In this document: one piece after another, positions 1 to 9,256 of the stretch
Layout of the letters: every line of letters starts with the position of its first letter
Numbering within the stretch: position 1 is the stretch's first letter
IMG/VR virus record: IMGVR_UViG_2617270976_000011
Location: 1-9,855 of that record
Origin: a virus
Taxonomy: Duplodnaviria; Heunggongvirae; Uroviricota; Caudoviricetes
Strand: one strand, 5' to 3'
Length of the DNA stretch: 9,855 nt
Program-made: the position numbers and the translations under genes
Notes under the pieces: model-generated
The model's database searches: none
What the model saw: the letters and a program-made list of their open reading frames with translations, nothing else
Told to the model about the DNA's origin: nothing

Positions 1-996
1 TTATGGACGCATTATGGACATTCCTGACACCGGGTTAAGAGTCACAGCATCTTGTAAGAAATCCGGTGCAAAGTGTGCGTAGGTCATAGTTTGCTGAATG
101 TTAGAATGACCCAGGATGCGCTGCAATGTGATTATGTTACCTCCATTAATTATAAAATGTGTGGCAAATGTATGCCTCAAAACATGTACTGCTTGTCCGT
201 CAGGTAAATCGGGTTTTACTTCCCTGAGAGCGTTACGCACTTTGTAGTAACTGGCATTAAAAAGCCTGCCTGAATTTTTGGTCTTGATCCTTTTAATCAG
301 GTCCTGCGAAACGGGAATTGTCCTGCGCTTTCCGTTTTTAGTTTTCATAAACGTAACCATCTGGTTAATGATGTGTTCAGCTTTCAAATTAGACACTTCA
401 CTCCAGCGTCCACCAGTAGAAAGGCAGACTAGAGTTGCATTTAACTCATCACCATCAAGCATGGATAACAGCCGCGTAATCTCTTCACTGGACAAAAAAG
501 CCATTTCTGTAACAGCTTCACGTAACCGCTTAACCTCACGGAACGGGTTGTGAGAGTGGTATTCACCGGCGTCAATTAACTTGGTGAACATCCCGCTCAT
601 TATTGCCAGATGCCGATTTACGCTGGCTGGTTTTAGACCATCGTTCATCATTACAACTCGATAATCAGTTATCGTTTTCTTTGTTAACTGGTCAGCTCTG
701 GACACTCCCATTTCTGCAAATTTGGCGATTATTGTCGTCAAACGCCCCCGTTCAATATTTCCACGCTCATGTGATTTTCCGTGATATATCCACCATCTGC
801 CTAACAACTCTGTAAGAGTTCGGCGGTCGGCTGGCTTCTCCAGCCACTCTTTGTTGTGGTAGTTAACCAGCACATGACGTTCGAATGCTTGAGCTTCACC
901 TTTAGTTTTAAATTTCCGCCTGATACGTTTTCCATCTGCACCCTGCGGTCTGACGTCCACTTCATAACGACCATCATCGAGCTTTTTAATAGACAT
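1..996 (-). CDS. int: Phage tyrosine integrase, P2 family, complete (331 aa)
   Basis: Full-length minus-strand ORF. The C-terminal catalytic region has HxxR (HVLRHTFATHF) and a conserved Tyr (MTYAHFAPDF). The N-terminus MSIKKLDDGRYEV matches my recollection of P2 Int (337 aa). A GGAGGG Shine-Dalgarno lies just upstream of the ATG at 994-996. Confidence 0.9.
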   Translation of the reverse strand: MSIKKLDDGRYEVDVRPQGADGKRIRRKFKTKGEAQAFERHVLVNYHNKEWLEKPADRRTLTELLGRWWIYHGKSHERGNIERGRLTTIIAKFAEMGVSRADQLTKKTITDYRVVMMNDGLKPASVNRHLAIMSGMFTKLIDAGEYHSHNPFREVKRLREAVTEMAFLSSEEITRLLSMLDGDELNATLVCLSTGGRWSEVSNLKAEHIINQMVTFMKTKNGKRRTIPVSQDLIKRIKTKNSGRLFNASYYKVRNALREVKPDLPDGQAVHVLRHTFATHFIINGGNIITLQRILGHSNIQQTMTYAHFAPDFLQDAVTLNPVSGMSIMRP

Positions 997-2690: not shown

Positions 2691-2753
2691 TTTATATCCA
2701 TCTAAATCATGATGTTATGATGGCCGTGTGAGTTCTTTTCTGATTGGGGCTGC

Positions 2754-2928
2754 GTTCGACGGCTTGAAATGTTGTAAATGCTCATAATCTGGTTTAAAGT
2801 GTTTTTATGCCAACGACTAGGAGCATCTCCAGTCATAAATGTTGGCCTCTACAGGCCTTTATATAGTGTTGCTCTTGTACTGCCTTCTCTTTCGAGAGAA
2901 GGTATGTACAAGAAGTAAAGCCTGCGAA
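2754..2928 (+). ncRNA. Candidate retron msr-msd non-coding RNA (boundaries approximate)
   Basis: Non-coding leader directly upstream of, and co-oriented with, the RT gene. Candidate a1 TTCGACGGCTT (2754-2764) is complementary to candidate a2 AAGCCTGCGAA (2918-2928) at 9 of 11 positions, with a G immediately 3' of a1. A strong hairpin at 2876-2910 sits just 5' of a2, where an msd stem would be. Not confirmed by folding or covariance. Confidence 0.3.
2876..2910 (+). repeat. Inverted-repeat hairpin: 8-bp perfect core CCTTCTCT/AGAGAAGG with a TTCG (UUCG) tetraloop, extendable to about 15 pairs with one G-T wobble and a 1-nt bulge
   Basis: Read directly: 2883-2890 CCTTCTCT, loop 2891-2894 TTCG, 2895-2902 AGAGAAGG; outer arms TGTAC (2876-2880) and GTACA (2906-2910). 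Confidence 0.8.
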
Positions 2929-3016
2929 GGGAGGGTGTCTGGGGTGAGGAAAGACTGAGAGTTAAAGCATTCATCTTAGAATCCATTCAACTCAAAAAAC
3001 AAAAGCTCAGCCAACG

Positions 3017-4006
3017 ATGAAACCCCTTAGTCTCGAAAAAGCCTTCAATATTGCATTCTTCGAAAAAGATTCCTTTCAAAACTTTCTTTCGTTTGAACCA
3101 TTTCAACAAACTAAATTTATAACCTTTGATGAAAGGTTAATTGCTGAGCCCACTTCTAAACTAAAAGAGTATCACAAATTCATAAATGAATTTGTTCTTT
3201 CATACTTGAAAGTAAATAAGGATGTTGTGTTTTCGTATAGAAAAGGAAGCAGCACTTATGATGCAGTAAAACTTCACGCCTGTAGTAAGATATTCTTCAA
3301 TACTGATATTAAAAGCTTTTTCCCATCGATAACTCGTGAATATGCACGATCAGTTTTAGTTGATAACTTATCGAACGTTCCCATTTCCGATTTAAATATA
3401 CACTTGGATAAAATTTTAGATTATATTATTATCGATAATTCGTTGCCTGTAGGGTTCCCGACATCACCAGCTTTCAGCAATGCATGTTTATATGACTTTG
3501 ATGTTGAGATGCAGCAATATTGTATTAACCATGAATATATATTCACACGCTATTCAGATGATATTATTATTTCCTCTGAAAATGATGAGGGCTTTGAGAA
3601 TATTCATTCTGTAGTAAGTGACCTGCTGGGTGAGTTTGGGAAGGGACATTTCAAACTAAACTCAGCAAAAACTAAATTGATTAAAAAAGGCAGTAAGATT
3701 AAGCTGCTGGGGATGGTTATTTTACCGTCTCAGATAGTCTCTGTTGATATTAAAATAAAAAGAAAGCTTGAGCATTTGATTCATTTTTATGTAACGGATA
3801 AAGATAAATTTATAGATTCTATAATAAAAGATCCTAAGGTTAAAACTAGCGGATTGAATGATAGTGAGATCTTGGAAAAGGGCGTTAATACAGTTTCTGG
3901 TCTTTTGAATCATATAAACACAATTGATAAGAGTTATCTCGATAAGCTAAAGAGAAAATACGGAAATACGATTGTCGATATGCTTTTTTACAAGAATGTA
4001 AATTAA
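3017..4006 (+). CDS. Reverse transcriptase, retron-type (329 aa)
   Basis: RT motifs are in canonical order: SSTYDAVKLHA (NAxxH-like box, residues 78-88), DIKSFFPSI (motif A, 97-105), LPVGFPTSPAFSN (QG-P-SP box, 143-155), YSDD catalytic box (179-182, nt 3551-3562), LLGMVI (230-235). Small size, no maturase or endonuclease domain, a non-coding structured leader upstream and an effector gene downstream all fit a retron. AT-rich coding sequence. Confidence 0.85.
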   Translation: MKPLSLEKAFNIAFFEKDSFQNFLSFEPFQQTKFITFDERLIAEPTSKLKEYHKFINEFVLSYLKVNKDVVFSYRKGSSTYDAVKLHACSKIFFNTDIKSFFPSITREYARSVLVDNLSNVPISDLNIHLDKILDYIIIDNSLPVGFPTSPAFSNACLYDFDVEMQQYCINHEYIFTRYSDDIIISSENDEGFENIHSVVSDLLGEFGKGHFKLNSAKTKLIKKGSKIKLLGMVILPSQIVSVDIKIKRKLEHLIHFYVTDKDKFIDSIIKDPKVKTSGLNDSEILEKGVNTVSGLLNHINTIDKSYLDKLKRKYGNTIVDMLFYKNVN

Positions 4007-4007
4007 A

Positions 4008-5360
4008 ATGAAAATAAATATTGAGATCTCGAAAATCCAGCATGTTGAACATATGTCATTTGCTATTGATCTTTCTGAAAATAAACTGACTTGCATTGTA
4101 GGAAAGAACGGTGCTGGAAAGACAACGCTAATCAAAGCAATTAAAAATTTACAATCAGCAGATACATTCATAAAGACATCTTCTAGATATATATTCAATC
4201 CTGACAGTAGTATAGTATATAATATTAATGATCAAGATATAGTATATGTCTATGATGAGAATTTGAAGGTAATAGATACTAAGCAAATAATTCCAGCAGA
4301 TATAAAATCCAATCTTTATGTCGAGTTGCCCATTCCTCATGGAATGAGGTTCAATAACTTCCCAACACTTAGTAAAATTGATACTGAACTTAGAAAAAGT
4401 ATTGCGTTTGAAAGCTATAGCGTTCCCGAGGATTTGATAAATATACTCAATGAGGTATATCAGTCTTCTTCTTACAATAATCTTAAAGCATTTTCTGTAA
4501 AAAATGAAATTTTCTATTTCAGATTGAATGAGAACGGAACATACATAAGGGAGGATTACTTTAGCTCGGGTGAGTATTTTATTTTGAATTTATTTAGAAT
4601 GATTGAGCTCAAAAGAAAATTCATTGTCATAGATGAGATAGATATATCACTAGACTCTTCGGCGCAAGTCCATCTTATAGCAGTGCTAAGGAAATATTGT
4701 CAGAGACACTCGGTGAATATTGTATTCACAACACATTCACTTGCTTTAATGCAAACGCTGAATGATGATGAATTGTACTATATGTGCGAAGGTGATGCTG
4801 GAACTACAATTACAAATCGATCATATAATTATATAAAAAGTACGCTTTTTGGATTTAAAGGATGGGATAAGTACATTCTTACTGAAGATGAAGTTCTGCA
4901 AAATTTCTTAGAATATATAATTAATGCTCCTGGGAATGATTACTTCTACGAATATAAAATAATATATGTTGGTGGAGGAACTAATGTCATTGATTTAATG
5001 CGTCGTAATGAGAGAGAGAGCTTTCTCACGACTCAACAGAATGTGATCTCAGTGTTAGACGGAGATCAATTAGGTCAAAGGCATGCTCGAGGTGAAAATA
5101 TTTTATGCATACCTTTCCAAAGCGTTGAGAAGGATTTCTATCAAGCATACGGCCAAGATGAATCGATCCCGAGAGTTACAACTAGAGGTAACGATAAACT
5201 TGATAAGCAAGTTTATCGAGGGGTAGTGAAAACCTATGACAACGGCTGGGATGAAACTAGGATTTTTGAATACCTTGAGAGGTTAAAGCCTGATGAATGT
5301 GAGGCTTTCAGGCAAAAAATTAGAGCATTTCTCCAAAGAAATATTTCGGCAGAGGGTTGA
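4008..5360 (+). CDS. OLD-family ABC-type ATPase with C-terminal TOPRIM-like nuclease domain (450 aa); probable retron effector
   Basis: Walker A GKNGAGKTT (residues 32-40, nt 4101-4127), ABC-signature-like FSSGE (185-189), Walker B FIVIDEID (205-212), H-loop TTHS (241-244). The C-terminal half has TOPRIM-like acidic residues: ILTEDEV (Glu ~293) and VLDGDQ (DxD, 351-353). The ATG lies 1 nt after the RT stop (TAA 4004-4006, ATG 4008-4010). Confidence 0.8.
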   Translation: MKINIEISKIQHVEHMSFAIDLSENKLTCIVGKNGAGKTTLIKAIKNLQSADTFIKTSSRYIFNPDSSIVYNINDQDIVYVYDENLKVIDTKQIIPADIKSNLYVELPIPHGMRFNNFPTLSKIDTELRKSIAFESYSVPEDLINILNEVYQSSSYNNLKAFSVKNEIFYFRLNENGTYIREDYFSSGEYFILNLFRMIELKRKFIVIDEIDISLDSSAQVHLIAVLRKYCQRHSVNIVFTTHSLALMQTLNDDELYYMCEGDAGTTITNRSYNYIKSTLFGFKGWDKYILTEDEVLQNFLEYIINAPGNDYFYEYKIIYVGGGTNVIDLMRRNERESFLTTQQNVISVLDGDQLGQRHARGENILCIPFQSVEKDFYQAYGQDESIPRVTTRGNDKLDKQVYRGVVKTYDNGWDETRIFEYLERLKPDECEAFRQKIRAFLQRNISAEG

Positions 5361-5690: not shown

Positions 5691-6209
5691 TCAGCCGTTG
5701 TCAGTGTCCAGTGAGTAGTTTTTAAAGCGGATGACCTCCTGACCGAGCCAGCCGTTTATCTCGCGGATCCTGTCCTGTAGCGGGATAAGCTCATTGCGGA
5801 CAAAGACCTTTGCCACTTTCTCAATATCACCCAGCGACCCGACGTTCTCCGGCTTGCCTCCCATCAACTGAAAGGGGATGCGGTGCGCGTCCAGCAGGTC
5901 AGCGGCGCTGGCTTTTTTGATATTAAAAAAATCGTCCTTCGTTGCGACTTCACTGAGCGGGATAATTTTAATGCCGTCGGCTTTCCCCTGCGGGGCATAG
6001 AGAAACAGATTTTTAAAGTTGTTGCGGCCTTTCGACTTGACCATGTTTTCGCGAATACGGGATGCGTGACCGTTCAGCTCGCGCAGTGATTTTTGTGTTT
6101 CCCGGATATCCCCCGACAGCGACCTGCTCGCTGTACGGATGGATTTAAACGGGCGGGATGCCTGGTCAACAGCCCTGAGCAATACCTGTAATTTTACATT
6201 GTTACTCAT
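5691..6209 (-). CDS. Chimeric ORF (172 aa): N-terminal ~60 aa consistent with the start of tape-measure gene T, fused to a ~110-aa portal-like (gpQ-like) C-terminal segment
   Basis: Its ATG (6207-6209) overlaps the stop of the upstream E' frame (TAA 6203-6205) as ATGAGTAA, the position expected for the start of T after E/E'. The C-terminal part (AHRIPFQLMGG ... NELIPLQDRIREINGWL) resembles a conserved C-terminal portal motif. Its own frame is closed by a TGA 18 codons upstream of the ATG. Confidence 0.45.
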   Translation of the reverse strand: MSNNVKLQVLLRAVDQASRPFKSIRTASRSLSGDIRETQKSLRELNGHASRIRENMVKSKGRNNFKNLFLYAPQGKADGIKIIPLSEVATKDDFFNIKKASAADLLDAHRIPFQLMGGKPENVGSLGDIEKVAKVFVRNELIPLQDRIREINGWLGQEVIRFKNYSLDTDNG

Positions 6210-6526: not shown

Positions 6527-9256
6527 ATGTGCGAACGGGTGGTCACTGTAGTCGGTGAAGATTTCCGGCTTTCCCAGCAGGATTTCAGCCGCTTTGTGCT
6601 GGATTTTCTGGTGTTCGGTAATGCGTTTCTGGAAAAGCGTTACAGCACCACCGGTAAGGTCATCAGACTGGAAACCTCACCGGCAAAATATACCCGCCGT
6701 GGTGTGGAGGAGGATGTTTACTGGTGGGTGCCGTCCTTCAACGAGCCGACAGCCTTCGCGCCCGGCTCCGTGTTTCACCTGCTGGAGCCGGATATTAATC
6801 AGGAGCTGTACGGCCTGCCGGAATATCTCAGCGCCCTTAACTCTGCCTGGCTGAATGAGTCAGCCACGCTGTTCCGCCGCAAGTATTACGAAAACGGCGC
6901 ACATGCCGGATACATCATGTACGTCACTGATGCCGTGCAGGATCGCAACGATATCGAAATGCTTGAGGGATTCCGCAAGACCAGTGCACAGCTTGCCGTG
7001 ACTGGTCATGCACTTGAAAAGGCTCGGCAGGAAGCCGAAGCCCTTGCCACACAGTTTAAAAACACCGAACGTCCGACCCGTGCTCAGGCGAAAGTGCTGG
7101 AATCCGCAAAGCGTGCGGCGGAGGACTTACAGGCGAAATATAACCGCCTGACGGATTCCGTTAAACGCCAGCAGCGGGAACTGGCCGCTGTGGGAATTAA
7201 TACCCGCAATCTTGCACATGATGAGCAGGGACTGAAAAACCGTATCAGTGAAACCACCGCACAGCTTAACCGTCAGCGTGATGCGCTGGCGCGTGTCAGT
7301 GCGCAACAGGCAAAACTTAACGCAGTCAAACAGCGTTATCAGGCCGGAAAGGAACTGGCCGGAAATATGGCCTCAGTAGGCGCTGCCGGTGTGGGGATTG
7401 CGGCGGCGGGAACGATGGCCGGAGTTAAATTGCTGATGCCCGGTTATGAGTTTGCGCAGAAAAACTCAGAATTGCAGGCCGTGCTCGGAGTGGCAAAAGA
7501 CTCCGCCGAAATGACCGCACTCCGCAAGCAGGCGCGCCAGCTCGGCGACAATACCGCAGCCTCGGCAGATGATGCAGCCGGTGCACAGATAATCATTGCG
7601 AAAGCGGGTGGAGATGCTGCGGCTATTCAGGCAGCAACGCCGGTCACACTGAATATGGCACTGGCAAACCAGCGGTCGATGGAAGAAAACGCGCAATTGT
7701 TGCTGGGGACTAAGGCATCCTTTCAACTGTCAAATGATGATGTCAGCCATGTGGGCGACGTGTTGTCGGCAACGATGAATAAGTCGGCGGCTGATTTTCA
7801 GGGACTCAGTGATGCACTGACTTACCTCGGCCCGGTTGCGAGGACGGCAGGTGTAAGTATTGAGCAGGCAGCGGCCATGACCGGTGTGCTGCATGACAAT
7901 AACATCAGGGGGTCAATGGCGGGTACGGGTAGCAGTGCCGTTGTCACCCGATTACAGGCACCGACTGGAAAAGCATGGGATGCACTCAAAGAGCTTGGCG
8001 TTAAAACCTCGGACAAAAAGGGAAATATGCGTCCGTTGTTCACCATTCTGAAAGAGATTCAGGCCAGCTTTGATAAGCATAAGCTGGGAACGTCTCAGAA
8101 GGGGGAATACCTTAAAACCATTTTTGGTGAGGAAGCCCTGAAATCAGCGAACGTTTTACTGGCAGCGGCAGCAAGCGGAAAACTGGATACGCTGACCGCC
8201 ACGCTGAAAGCCTCGGACGGTAAAACGGAAGAGCTGGTTAAAATCATGCAGGATAACCTCGGCGGTGACTTTAAGGAGTTTCAGTCCGCTTATGAGGCGG
8301 TGGGGACTGACCTGTTTGACCAGCAGGAAGGCGCACTGCGTAAGCTCACTCAGACGGCCACAAAGTATGTGTTAAAACTCGACGGCTGGATCCAGAAAAA
8401 CAAATCACTGGCGTCAACCATCGGCCTCATTGTCGGTGGCGCGCTGGCGCTTATTGGCATCATCGGTGCCATTGGTCTTGTCGCCTGGCCGGTTATCACC
8501 GGCATCAATGCCATTATCGCGGCAGCAGGCGCAATGGGGGCAATCTTCACGACGGTTAGCAGTGCTGTTATGACGGCCATCGGGGCGATTAGCTGGCCGG
8601 TTGTGGCCGTGGTGGCCGCCATTGTCGCCGGGGCGTTGCTTATCCGTAAATACTGGGAGCCTGTCAGCGCATTCTTTGGCGGTGTGGTGGAAGGGCTGAA
8701 AGCGGCATTTGCGCCGGTGGGGGAACTGTTCACGCCACTGAAGCCGGTGTTTGACTGGCTGGGTGAAAAGTTACAGGCCGTGTGGCAGTGGTTTAAAAAC
8801 CTGATTGCCCCGGTCAAAGCCACCCAGGACACCCTGAACCGTTGCCGTGACACGGGCGTTATGTTCGGGCAGGCACTGGCTGACGCGCTGATGCTGCCGC
8901 TTAATGCGTTCAACAAACTGCGCAGCGGTATTGACTGGGTACTGGAAAAACTCGGTGTTATCAACAAAGAGTCAGACACACTTGACCAGACCGCCGCAAG
9001 GACTCATGCCGCCACGTATGGCACCGGTGGTTATATTCCGGCGACCAGCTCTTATGCTGGCTATCAGGCTTATCAGCCGGTCACGGCACCGGCTGGCCGC
9101 TCTTATGTGGACCAGAGTAAAAACGAATATCACATCAACCTGACGGGCGGTACTGCGCCGGGGACACAGCTCGACCGCCAGTTACAGGATGCGCTCGAAA
9201 AATACGAGCGGGATAAACGTGCGCGCGCCCGTGCCAGCATGATGCATGACGGTTAA
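6527..9256 (+). CDS. Chimeric long ORF (909 aa): N-terminal ~150-aa portal-like segment fused in frame to ~745 aa of phage tail tape-measure protein (gpT-like)
   Basis: From about residue 160 onward the protein has a long coiled-coil region, a conserved tape-measure core (ASFQLSNDDVSHVGDVLSATMNKSAADFQGLSDALTYLGPVARTAGVSIEQAAAMTGVLHDNN) and Gly/Ala/Ile-rich hydrophobic segments. The first ~150 residues (e.g. FRRKYYENGAHAGYIMYVTDAVQDRNDIEMLEG) are unlike tape measure and look portal-like. No Shine-Dalgarno precedes the ATG, and the frame is open back to 6299 without a start. Confidence 0.75.
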   Translation: MCERVVTVVGEDFRLSQQDFSRFVLDFLVFGNAFLEKRYSTTGKVIRLETSPAKYTRRGVEEDVYWWVPSFNEPTAFAPGSVFHLLEPDINQELYGLPEYLSALNSAWLNESATLFRRKYYENGAHAGYIMYVTDAVQDRNDIEMLEGFRKTSAQLAVTGHALEKARQEAEALATQFKNTERPTRAQAKVLESAKRAAEDLQAKYNRLTDSVKRQQRELAAVGINTRNLAHDEQGLKNRISETTAQLNRQRDALARVSAQQAKLNAVKQRYQAGKELAGNMASVGAAGVGIAAAGTMAGVKLLMPGYEFAQKNSELQAVLGVAKDSAEMTALRKQARQLGDNTAASADDAAGAQIIIAKAGGDAAAIQAATPVTLNMALANQRSMEENAQLLLGTKASFQLSNDDVSHVGDVLSATMNKSAADFQGLSDALTYLGPVARTAGVSIEQAAAMTGVLHDNNIRGSMAGTGSSAVVTRLQAPTGKAWDALKELGVKTSDKKGNMRPLFTILKEIQASFDKHKLGTSQKGEYLKTIFGEEALKSANVLLAAAASGKLDTLTATLKASDGKTEELVKIMQDNLGGDFKEFQSAYEAVGTDLFDQQEGALRKLTQTATKYVLKLDGWIQKNKSLASTIGLIVGGALALIGIIGAIGLVAWPVITGINAIIAAAGAMGAIFTTVSSAVMTAIGAISWPVVAVVAAIVAGALLIRKYWEPVSAFFGGVVEGLKAAFAPVGELFTPLKPVFDWLGEKLQAVWQWFKNLIAPVKATQDTLNRCRDTGVMFGQALADALMLPLNAFNKLRSGIDWVLEKLGVINKESDTLDQTAARTHAATYGTGGYIPATSSYAGYQAYQPVTAPAGRSYVDQSKNEYHINLTGGTAPGTQLDRQLQDALEKYERDKRARARASMMHDG

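Follow-up and report, generated by a model that had tools for sequence, protein, structure and literature searches.

A predicted non-coding RNA gene of a type I-B1 retron in a P2-like Escherichia coli prophage

The cassette and its setting

The window (the whole 9,855-nucleotide stretch of DNA that was analysed) is E. coli DNA, and its segment 2650–5400 was matched in 10 of 5426 complete E. coli genomes at 98–99.9% identity. The host element is a degraded P2-like E. coli prophage, which is heavily deleted in the window. The genes and features discussed below are the following.

1–996, minus strand: integrase ORF (ORF/domain annotation)
1476–2690: ORF in which a Cox domain is joined to the C-terminal end of replication protein A
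2755–2765, plus strand: TTCGACGGCTT, the 5' arm of a duplex proposed earlier; rejected here as a part of the RNA, and located upstream of the conserved −35 element
2772–2777, plus strand: predicted −35 element TTGTAA of the RNA promoter (TTG at a fixed distance from the 20-mer)
2795–2800, plus strand: predicted −10 element TAAAGT, 17 nt after the −35 (TAnnnT at a fixed distance)
2809–2846, plus strand: 5' stem-loop with outer stem GCCAAC/GTTGGC, 2809–2814 / 2841–2846 (folding and covariation)
2815–2834, plus strand: near-invariant 20-mer GACTAGGAGCATCTCCAGTC (GACTAGGAGYATCTCCAGTC), an inner hairpin with a bulged A (sequence conservation)
2847–2852, plus strand: conserved single-stranded linker CUCUAC (conservation in alignment A7)
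2852–2856, plus strand: 5' strand of helix P_x, CAGGC, which closes the extended hairpin and pairs with 2920–2924
2869–2918, plus strand: putative msd-type long hairpin with base UUGCU/AGUAA and a variable top (folding and covariation)
2920–2924, plus strand: 3' strand of helix P_x, GCCUG (covariation and a natural variant)
3017–4006, plus strand: retron reverse transcriptase (RT), 329 aa, with YSDD at residue 179 (PADLOC RT_I-B, 6.5e-110; Pfam RVT_1)
4008–5360, plus strand: ATPase-Toprim (class 3B OLD-like) effector, 450 aa (PADLOC ATPase-Toprim_I-B, 1.6e-179, full length)
5691–6209: portal gene reduced to a 172-aa fragment
6527–9256: tape-measure-like ORF, 909 aa, which starts with apparently unrelated sequence

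The prophage is a remnant that carries the retron cassette in intact form. A low-GC island with two ORFs separates the phage parts (about 30–40% G+C vs. about 55% around it). The same cassette is found in an intact P2-like prophage of E. coli LR-45, between the replication endonuclease gene A and the portal gene, and annotation of an RNA gene is absent at that position. The site is the P2 old/tin hotspot, where P2 carries old and tin and where other anti-phage systems have been found (PMC10568477). The position is common to both, but the cargo here is a retron and not a class 1 OLD gene. A search of a phage collection for the cassette gave zero matches.

The PADLOC RT_I-B match spans the full length of the RT ORF. 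The effector carries a Walker A motif (GKNGAGKT at residue 32) and the Toprim motifs EDEVL at residue 293 and DGD at residue 351. Subtype I-B1 is defined by EDxxL (motif IV) and DxD (motif V) in an effector that lies downstream of the RT (Mestre et al. 2020, PMC7736814), and the motifs observed here agree with Table 1 of that work. The same arrangement is named class 3B OLD in PMC10568477. From its sequence, we assign the locus to the type I-B1 retrons, a reverse-transcriptase phage-defence system type. It has the general marks of a retron, namely a YxDD RT and an adjacent structured non-coding RNA (ncRNA) with a conserved putative recognition hairpin and a long, stable msd stem-loop. The marks of type I-B1 are the effector motifs and an IB1-type ncRNA, whose 20-mer, linker, and hairpin base are common with those of the retron Mestre-308. 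At RT residues 230–234 the protein has LLG, vs. the retron hallmark VTG in the RTs of Ec78, Ec83, and Ec86; the L-G of this LLG is invariant across 38 I-B1 RTs.

Two further elements were observed between the RNA and the RT. A second promoter-like site (CTGAGA, 16 nt, TAGAAT; window 2955–2982) precedes the RT start by about 35 nt. Photorhabdus and other relatives have GATAAT, GTTAAT, or GATTAT aligned with its TAGAAT. The RT may have a promoter of its own at this site. The segment 2936–2985 holds a G-U-rich hairpin (UCUGGGGUGAG / UUCAUCUUAGA; z −2.2), of which the stems are invariant and the loop varies in the closest relatives.

A structured RNA upstream of the reverse transcriptase

An earlier note on this DNA proposed a retron msr–msd RNA upstream of the RT, and the proposal is borne out in kind. 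The hairpin that it described at 2876–2910 is present (TGTACTGCCTTCTCTTTCGAGAGAAGGTATGTACA), as are its 8-bp core (CCTTCTCT/AGAGAAGG, 2883–2890 / 2895–2902) and TTCG loop. The helix does extend beyond the core, as had been claimed, but to 22 bp (2869–2918) rather than about 15 pairs, with the hairpin described earlier inside it. Folded as RNA, the full hairpin has a ΔG of −27.9 kcal mol−1 (z −7.7), and 0 of 200 shuffled sequences was as stable. The reverse complement folded as DNA has a ΔG of −13.5 kcal mol−1 (z −7.0). The base UUGCU/AGUAA agrees with the family consensus UUAC...GUAA; in a 25-sequence alignment UU(A/G)C...GUAA is invariant and the top is variable. Aligned homologues show compensatory changes, with 99% of cells paired and seven double-changed pairs in 14 relatives. 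On this evidence the hairpin is read as the msd-type (template-type) stem-loop of a type I-B1 retron ncRNA.

The 5' stem-loop contains, in addition to its outer stem, an inner hairpin and a 6-nt asymmetric loop on the 3' side, and folds with a ΔG of −15.7 kcal mol−1 (z −4.1). In an alignment of 70 sequences 95.6% of its cells are paired, with 75 double-change cells vs. 21.8 expected; controls in which the stem was slid gave 19–42% paired. The inner hairpin is formed by the 20-mer. In 57 of 81 sequences (the window and 80 loci) it was found with at most two mismatches on the RT strand, ahead of the RT; the remaining loci carry it on the opposite strand. The few changes in it are compensatory. 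The 20-mer is likely to be the RT recognition element, by analogy with SL2 of Retron-Eco7. The linker that follows is unpaired, with C64, C66, T67, and A68 conserved at 92–100% (alignment A7).

Helix P_x closes the extended hairpin, and the internal loop after its 5' strand holds a conserved UUUAU (2858–2862). In 14 close relatives P_x is paired in 81% of cells, some of which have A-U or G-U in place of G-C, and one P_x pair becomes G-U through the natural variant C2921T.

The leader has other pairing options. A scanner flagged a terminator-like hairpin, GGCCU-CUAC-AGGCC, at 2844–2857 (GGCCTCTACAGGCC then TTTATATAGT). It overlaps the 3' strand of the outer stem, competes with that covarying helix, and is not conserved beyond the closest clade, and it was rejected; it could be an alternative conformer. 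There are two copies of the hexamer GCCAAC, one forming the 5' strand of the outer stem (2809–2814) and the other at 3009–3014, 3 nt before the RT start codon. GUUGGC (2841–2846) could pair with either copy, and the minimum-free-energy fold of the whole leader takes the distal one. This second copy is conserved in the closest relatives only.

Promoter elements became visible when loci were aligned on the 20-mer. Of 58 loci, 53 carry a TTG at −42 to −45 relative to the 20-mer, and in alignment A4 it hardly varies. TAnnnT starts at −20 to −22 in 51 of the 58, with a 17-nt spacer in 44, and T29, A30, and T34 of the −10 region are invariant or nearly so in A4. In all, about 50 of the 58 loci, from Gamma- and Betaproteobacteria, have the −35 and −10 at a fixed distance. 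CAT(G/A) is conserved just before the outer stem; upstream of the promoter, conservation was absent between clades and was seen only within the closest clade. A single-sequence promoter scan of the window misses both elements because the window hexamers are individually weak and score only 8/12. From this comparative evidence we infer a sigma-70 promoter. Since it lies at a fixed distance across loci, the RNA most likely starts near A2807, and the corrected span of the RNA would be about 2807–2926. A reading of the upstream conserved TTG as an a2 plus G was rejected in favor of the −35 box.

We extended the comparison to the family. An RT search returned 334 homologues, of which 80 genome loci (36–88% RT identity) were fetched; 31 viral and metagenomic loci and the native Mestre-308 locus were added. 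RNAalifold predicts the 5' stem-loop and the hairpin only, with compensatory changes in 14 of 26 pairs. A covariance model, R1, was built from 25 sequences with the window among the seeds. It gave exactly one match per source in 67 of 67 sources searched, at 38–120 bits. The window, itself a seed, scored 120 bits (2805–2926), and non-seed loci scored up to 105 bits. In the resulting alignment of 66 sequences 95.1% of cells are paired, with 316 double-change cells vs. 93 in shuffles and 33–45% paired in slid controls; this alignment was fitted to R1 and is hence somewhat biased towards the proposed structure.

The R1 match lies on the strand opposite the RT in 18 loci, mostly from Betaproteobacteria, in which the RNA is transcribed divergently, 55–175 nt from the RT start.

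About 2700–2945, minus strand: inverted ncRNA in loci L018, L026, L035, L037, L042, L047, L055, L056, L062, L064, L067, L069, L072, L075, L077, L079, and L080
1071–1179, minus strand: inverted ncRNA in locus L029

Because it is found on the opposite strand in these loci, the retron RNA appears to be its own transcription unit. Therefore, no segment of the RT leader or of the ORF is universal to the RNA. The inverted loci keep TAnnnT about 7 nt before CATG, often with TTGACA farther up, and the promoter assignment is supported because the −10 and −35 travel with the inverted RNA. The hairpin base in this subgroup is CUAC...GUAG. Short tandem repeats were observed directly 3' of the ncRNA hairpin, before the RT, in two loci: CTCAGCA in L030 (about 2660–2740) and CCAGCT in L019 (about 2730–2810).

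Taken together, we consider it highly probable that the feature is the ncRNA gene of a type I-B1 retron, with its own promoter, a 5' stem-loop, a linker, and a long hairpin extended by P_x.

The cDNA and its priming

Functional studies of a I-B1 retron were not found in a literature search, nor was a member with demonstrated phage defence or abundant msDNA. The retron census cloned two I-B1 retrons, Mestre-308 and Mestre-314 (PMC10849725). Mestre-308 gave 0 RT-DNA by PAGE, yet a 116-nt RT-DNA by sequencing (PMC10849725, supplement 3). Its native locus (L112) has the same 20-mer, linker, UUAC...GUAA hairpin base, and architecture as the window. The cDNA is antisense, with its start at the last A of GUAAAAAA (3' base of the hairpin) and its end at GUCAGC (5' base of the outer stem). 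This latter end is 2 nt from the start predicted by the −10 box of the native locus itself. The true start of the cDNA may lie a few nucleotides further 3', because ExoVII removes the first 4 nt of the DNA in canonical clade-1 retrons (PMC12673091); a canonical clade-1 example in the census shows the same ExoVII offset (PMC10849725). Transfer of the Mestre-308 boundaries would give a cDNA of the window that is the reverse complement of 2809–2919, about 111 nt, with a predicted fold of −24.6 kcal mol−1 (z −6.6). Since the gel band is absent, the Mestre-308 cDNA could be a minor product formed in a heterologous host. It covers the invariant 5' hairpin, which is a misfit with the Eco7/Eco1 termination model, where the recognition hairpin stays RNA (PMC12673091).

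The ncRNA cloned for Mestre-314 has its 5' end downstream of the 5' stem-loop and its 3' end within the RT ORF, and RT-DNA was absent (PMC10849725, supplement 3). The construct has no invariant 20-mer (compare L012, L013, and L017), which may explain the absence of RT-DNA. The 9-bp a1/a2 given for Mestre-314, CGGCUCUGC with GCAGAGCUG inside the RT ORF, recurs in L012, L013, and L017, where covariation is absent, and was rejected; it is not general because some of the ncRNAs are inverted.

Several searches were made for an a1/a2 helix or a branching G. Ungapped stems of at least 6 bp in the window and 58 loci gave no recurrent a1/a2 with an arm upstream of the stem-loop. Terminal inverted repeats that enclose both msr and msd were not seen as a consistent family-wide pair. 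When the complementarity of the 5' part with everything downstream was compared with shuffles, only the hairpin strands were enriched, together with a weak signal over the loop of the 20-mer (z about 2). The duplex energy of the linker segment with the 45 nt after the hairpin has a mean z of 0.09, and a permuted a2...a1 hairpin downstream of the msd has a mean z of 0. No unpaired G conserved at 90% or more is present in the 66-sequence structural alignment; the candidate branch positions vary between G, U, A, and C.

Short helices specific to single clades do occur, each with its 5' strand located after the 5' stem-loop and before the hairpin. These are P_x in the enterobacterial loci, the CGGCUCUGC/GCAGAGCUG pair in the Burkholderia type, and CCUCUA-G / G-UAGAG(G) in the inverted subgroup, which could give an a1:a2 of 5–6 bp with two opposing G. 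They would fit a permuted order in which the stem-loop is followed by a1, msd, and a2. On this reading the RNA is a canonical retron with the recognition stem-loop placed 5' of a1, and in the window CAGGC(C)UUUA (2852–2861) would pair as a1 with UAAAGCCUG (2916–2924) as a2. The conserved G2915 of AGUAA would be the opposing G, and an msDNA of about 50–55 nt would be copied from 2862–2914. The pairing and compensatory changes of P_x in the close clade, its natural G-U variant, and the inverted-subgroup helix argue for it, as does the resemblance of the UUA...G-UAA junction to the canonical a1-bG / oG-a2 junction (PMC10849725). However, at the would-be branch position the window has U, and close relatives have G, U, or A. 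P_x was not found at a fixed place family-wide (mean z 0). The RT-DNA of Mestre-308 also contains sequence complementary to GUAAAAAA and to the would-be a1. We regard this reading as rather improbable.

Less probable still is an RNA that serves the RT-effector complex in a structural or regulatory role and is not normally reverse transcribed, or a hairpin that acts in the RT leader as a terminator or attenuator. In keeping with an RNA that is not a template, gel-visible RT-DNA was seen in 0 of 2 tested I-B1 retrons, a branching G was not found, and the RT has LLG vs. VTG elsewhere. However, the YSDD active site is intact, and the cDNA sequenced for Mestre-308 is strand-specific with structure-defined ends. 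A U-run after the hairpin is absent, which speaks against a terminator, and the divergent RNAs of the 18 inverted loci speak against a leader element.

The weakest reading is that of the earlier note, a canonical msr–msd at 2754–2928 with TTCGACGGCTT/AAGCCTGCGAA as a1/a2, a priming G after the 5' arm, and an msDNA of about 50 nt, and we consider it very improbable. The 3' arm AAGCCTGCGAA lies at 2918–2928 as described, but the 5' arm is at 2755–2765 and not 2754–2764, so that the G that follows is 2766 rather than 2765. The two arms are indeed complementary at 9 of 11 positions, and the closest relatives keep the innermost three pairs (CTT/AAG). However, the match is at chance level: the 317-nt leader contains 3 arm pairs of this quality vs. 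4.0 ± 2.8 in dinucleotide shuffles. In alignment A3, with the 14 closest relatives, 53% of the cells of the 11-bp duplex are paired vs. 47% when shuffled and 50% and 45.5% when slid by one column, whereas the structure proposed here is 96.8% paired on the same alignment vs. about 40% when slid. Outside the closest clade the arm region is unconserved. The 5' arm falls outside the RNA because the conserved promoter places the start site 42–52 nt downstream of it, and the left boundary and the priming-G assignment were wrong. Moreover, RNA and promoter form a self-contained unit that is inverted in 18 loci. The msDNA estimate is unsupported; the sole homologue with data is Mestre-308, with its much longer product. 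The covariance-model check that had been suggested gave no retron family: none of the 4227 families of Rfam release 15 reached its gathering score in the window, and relaxing the cutoff to an E of 10 brought up only chance matches to microRNAs and potC.

Mechanism, related systems, and meaning

In the mechanism that we favor for a type I-B1 retron RNA gene, the sigma-70 promoter (2772–2777, 2795–2800) would make the RNA from about A2807. By analogy with Retron-Eco7 and Eco1, the RT would bind the invariant 5' hairpin and copy the long hairpin into single-stranded DNA. This DNA, together with the RT, would hold the ATPase-Toprim nuclease inactive until perturbation by a phage.

Mestre-308, from Atopomonas (Pseudomonas) hussainii, shares with the window the RT_I-B profile and the gene order ncRNA, RT, and ATPase-Toprim with EDxxL and DxD. 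The RT identity is about 45% (P0033), the sequence of the hairpin top differs, and the window member resides in a P2-like prophage. The closest RTs with solved structures are those of the type I-A retrons Retron-Eco7 (Ec78; E 1e-19) and Retron-Eco4 (Ec83; E 2e-16). In retrons of this kind a conserved msr stem-loop, together with a linker, is what the RT recognizes, and an ATPase-nuclease effector is sequestered by the DNA hairpin of the msd (PMC12673091). An a1:a2 stem is plainly present in Eco7, along with a branching and an opposing G, and its SL1 and SL2 are placed after the branch point and before the msd. In the present RNA, by contrast, the conserved stem-loop comes first, at the very 5' end, and neither such a stem nor such a G was found. 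The effector also differs, being a single ATPase-Toprim protein rather than PtuA plus PtuB. Retron-Eco8 (type I-B2) has an OLD-family ATPase-Toprim effector as well, and its msDNA senses phage SSB (PMC13402713). However, its RT is distant (E 4e-8) and belongs to RT clade 3, against clade 1 here, and its Toprim motif IV is EGxxE vs. EDxxL. The window effector has no PDB sequence match at 1e-5, so that close homology to that of Eco8 was not seen.

The locus is thus an uncharacterized new member of a bioinformatically known subtype, with an RNA that looks non-canonical. In the literature searched, I-B1 members are without a defined msDNA, priming site, or demonstrated defence phenotype. Corrected and testable RNA boundaries are now given for an E. 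coli type I-B1 retron, and the family promoter, the invariant 20-mer, and the strand-flipped loci indicate the required content of a functional clone. More tentatively, and with appreciable doubt, we suggest that I-B1 RNAs are autonomous genes that can stand in either orientation, with the recognition hairpin at their extreme 5' end and without a terminal a1/a2 or a conserved branching G, and that their cDNA is primed unlike that of characterized retrons. Priming could then involve a permuted layout whose a1:a2 is short and internal, or a priming nucleotide other than G or a priming group other than 2'-OH. If priming does differ, this would explain why a canonical msDNA band is absent in I-B1 members, and a priming chemistry different from that of canonical retrons would be relevant both to retron biology and to retron-based DNA-writing tools.
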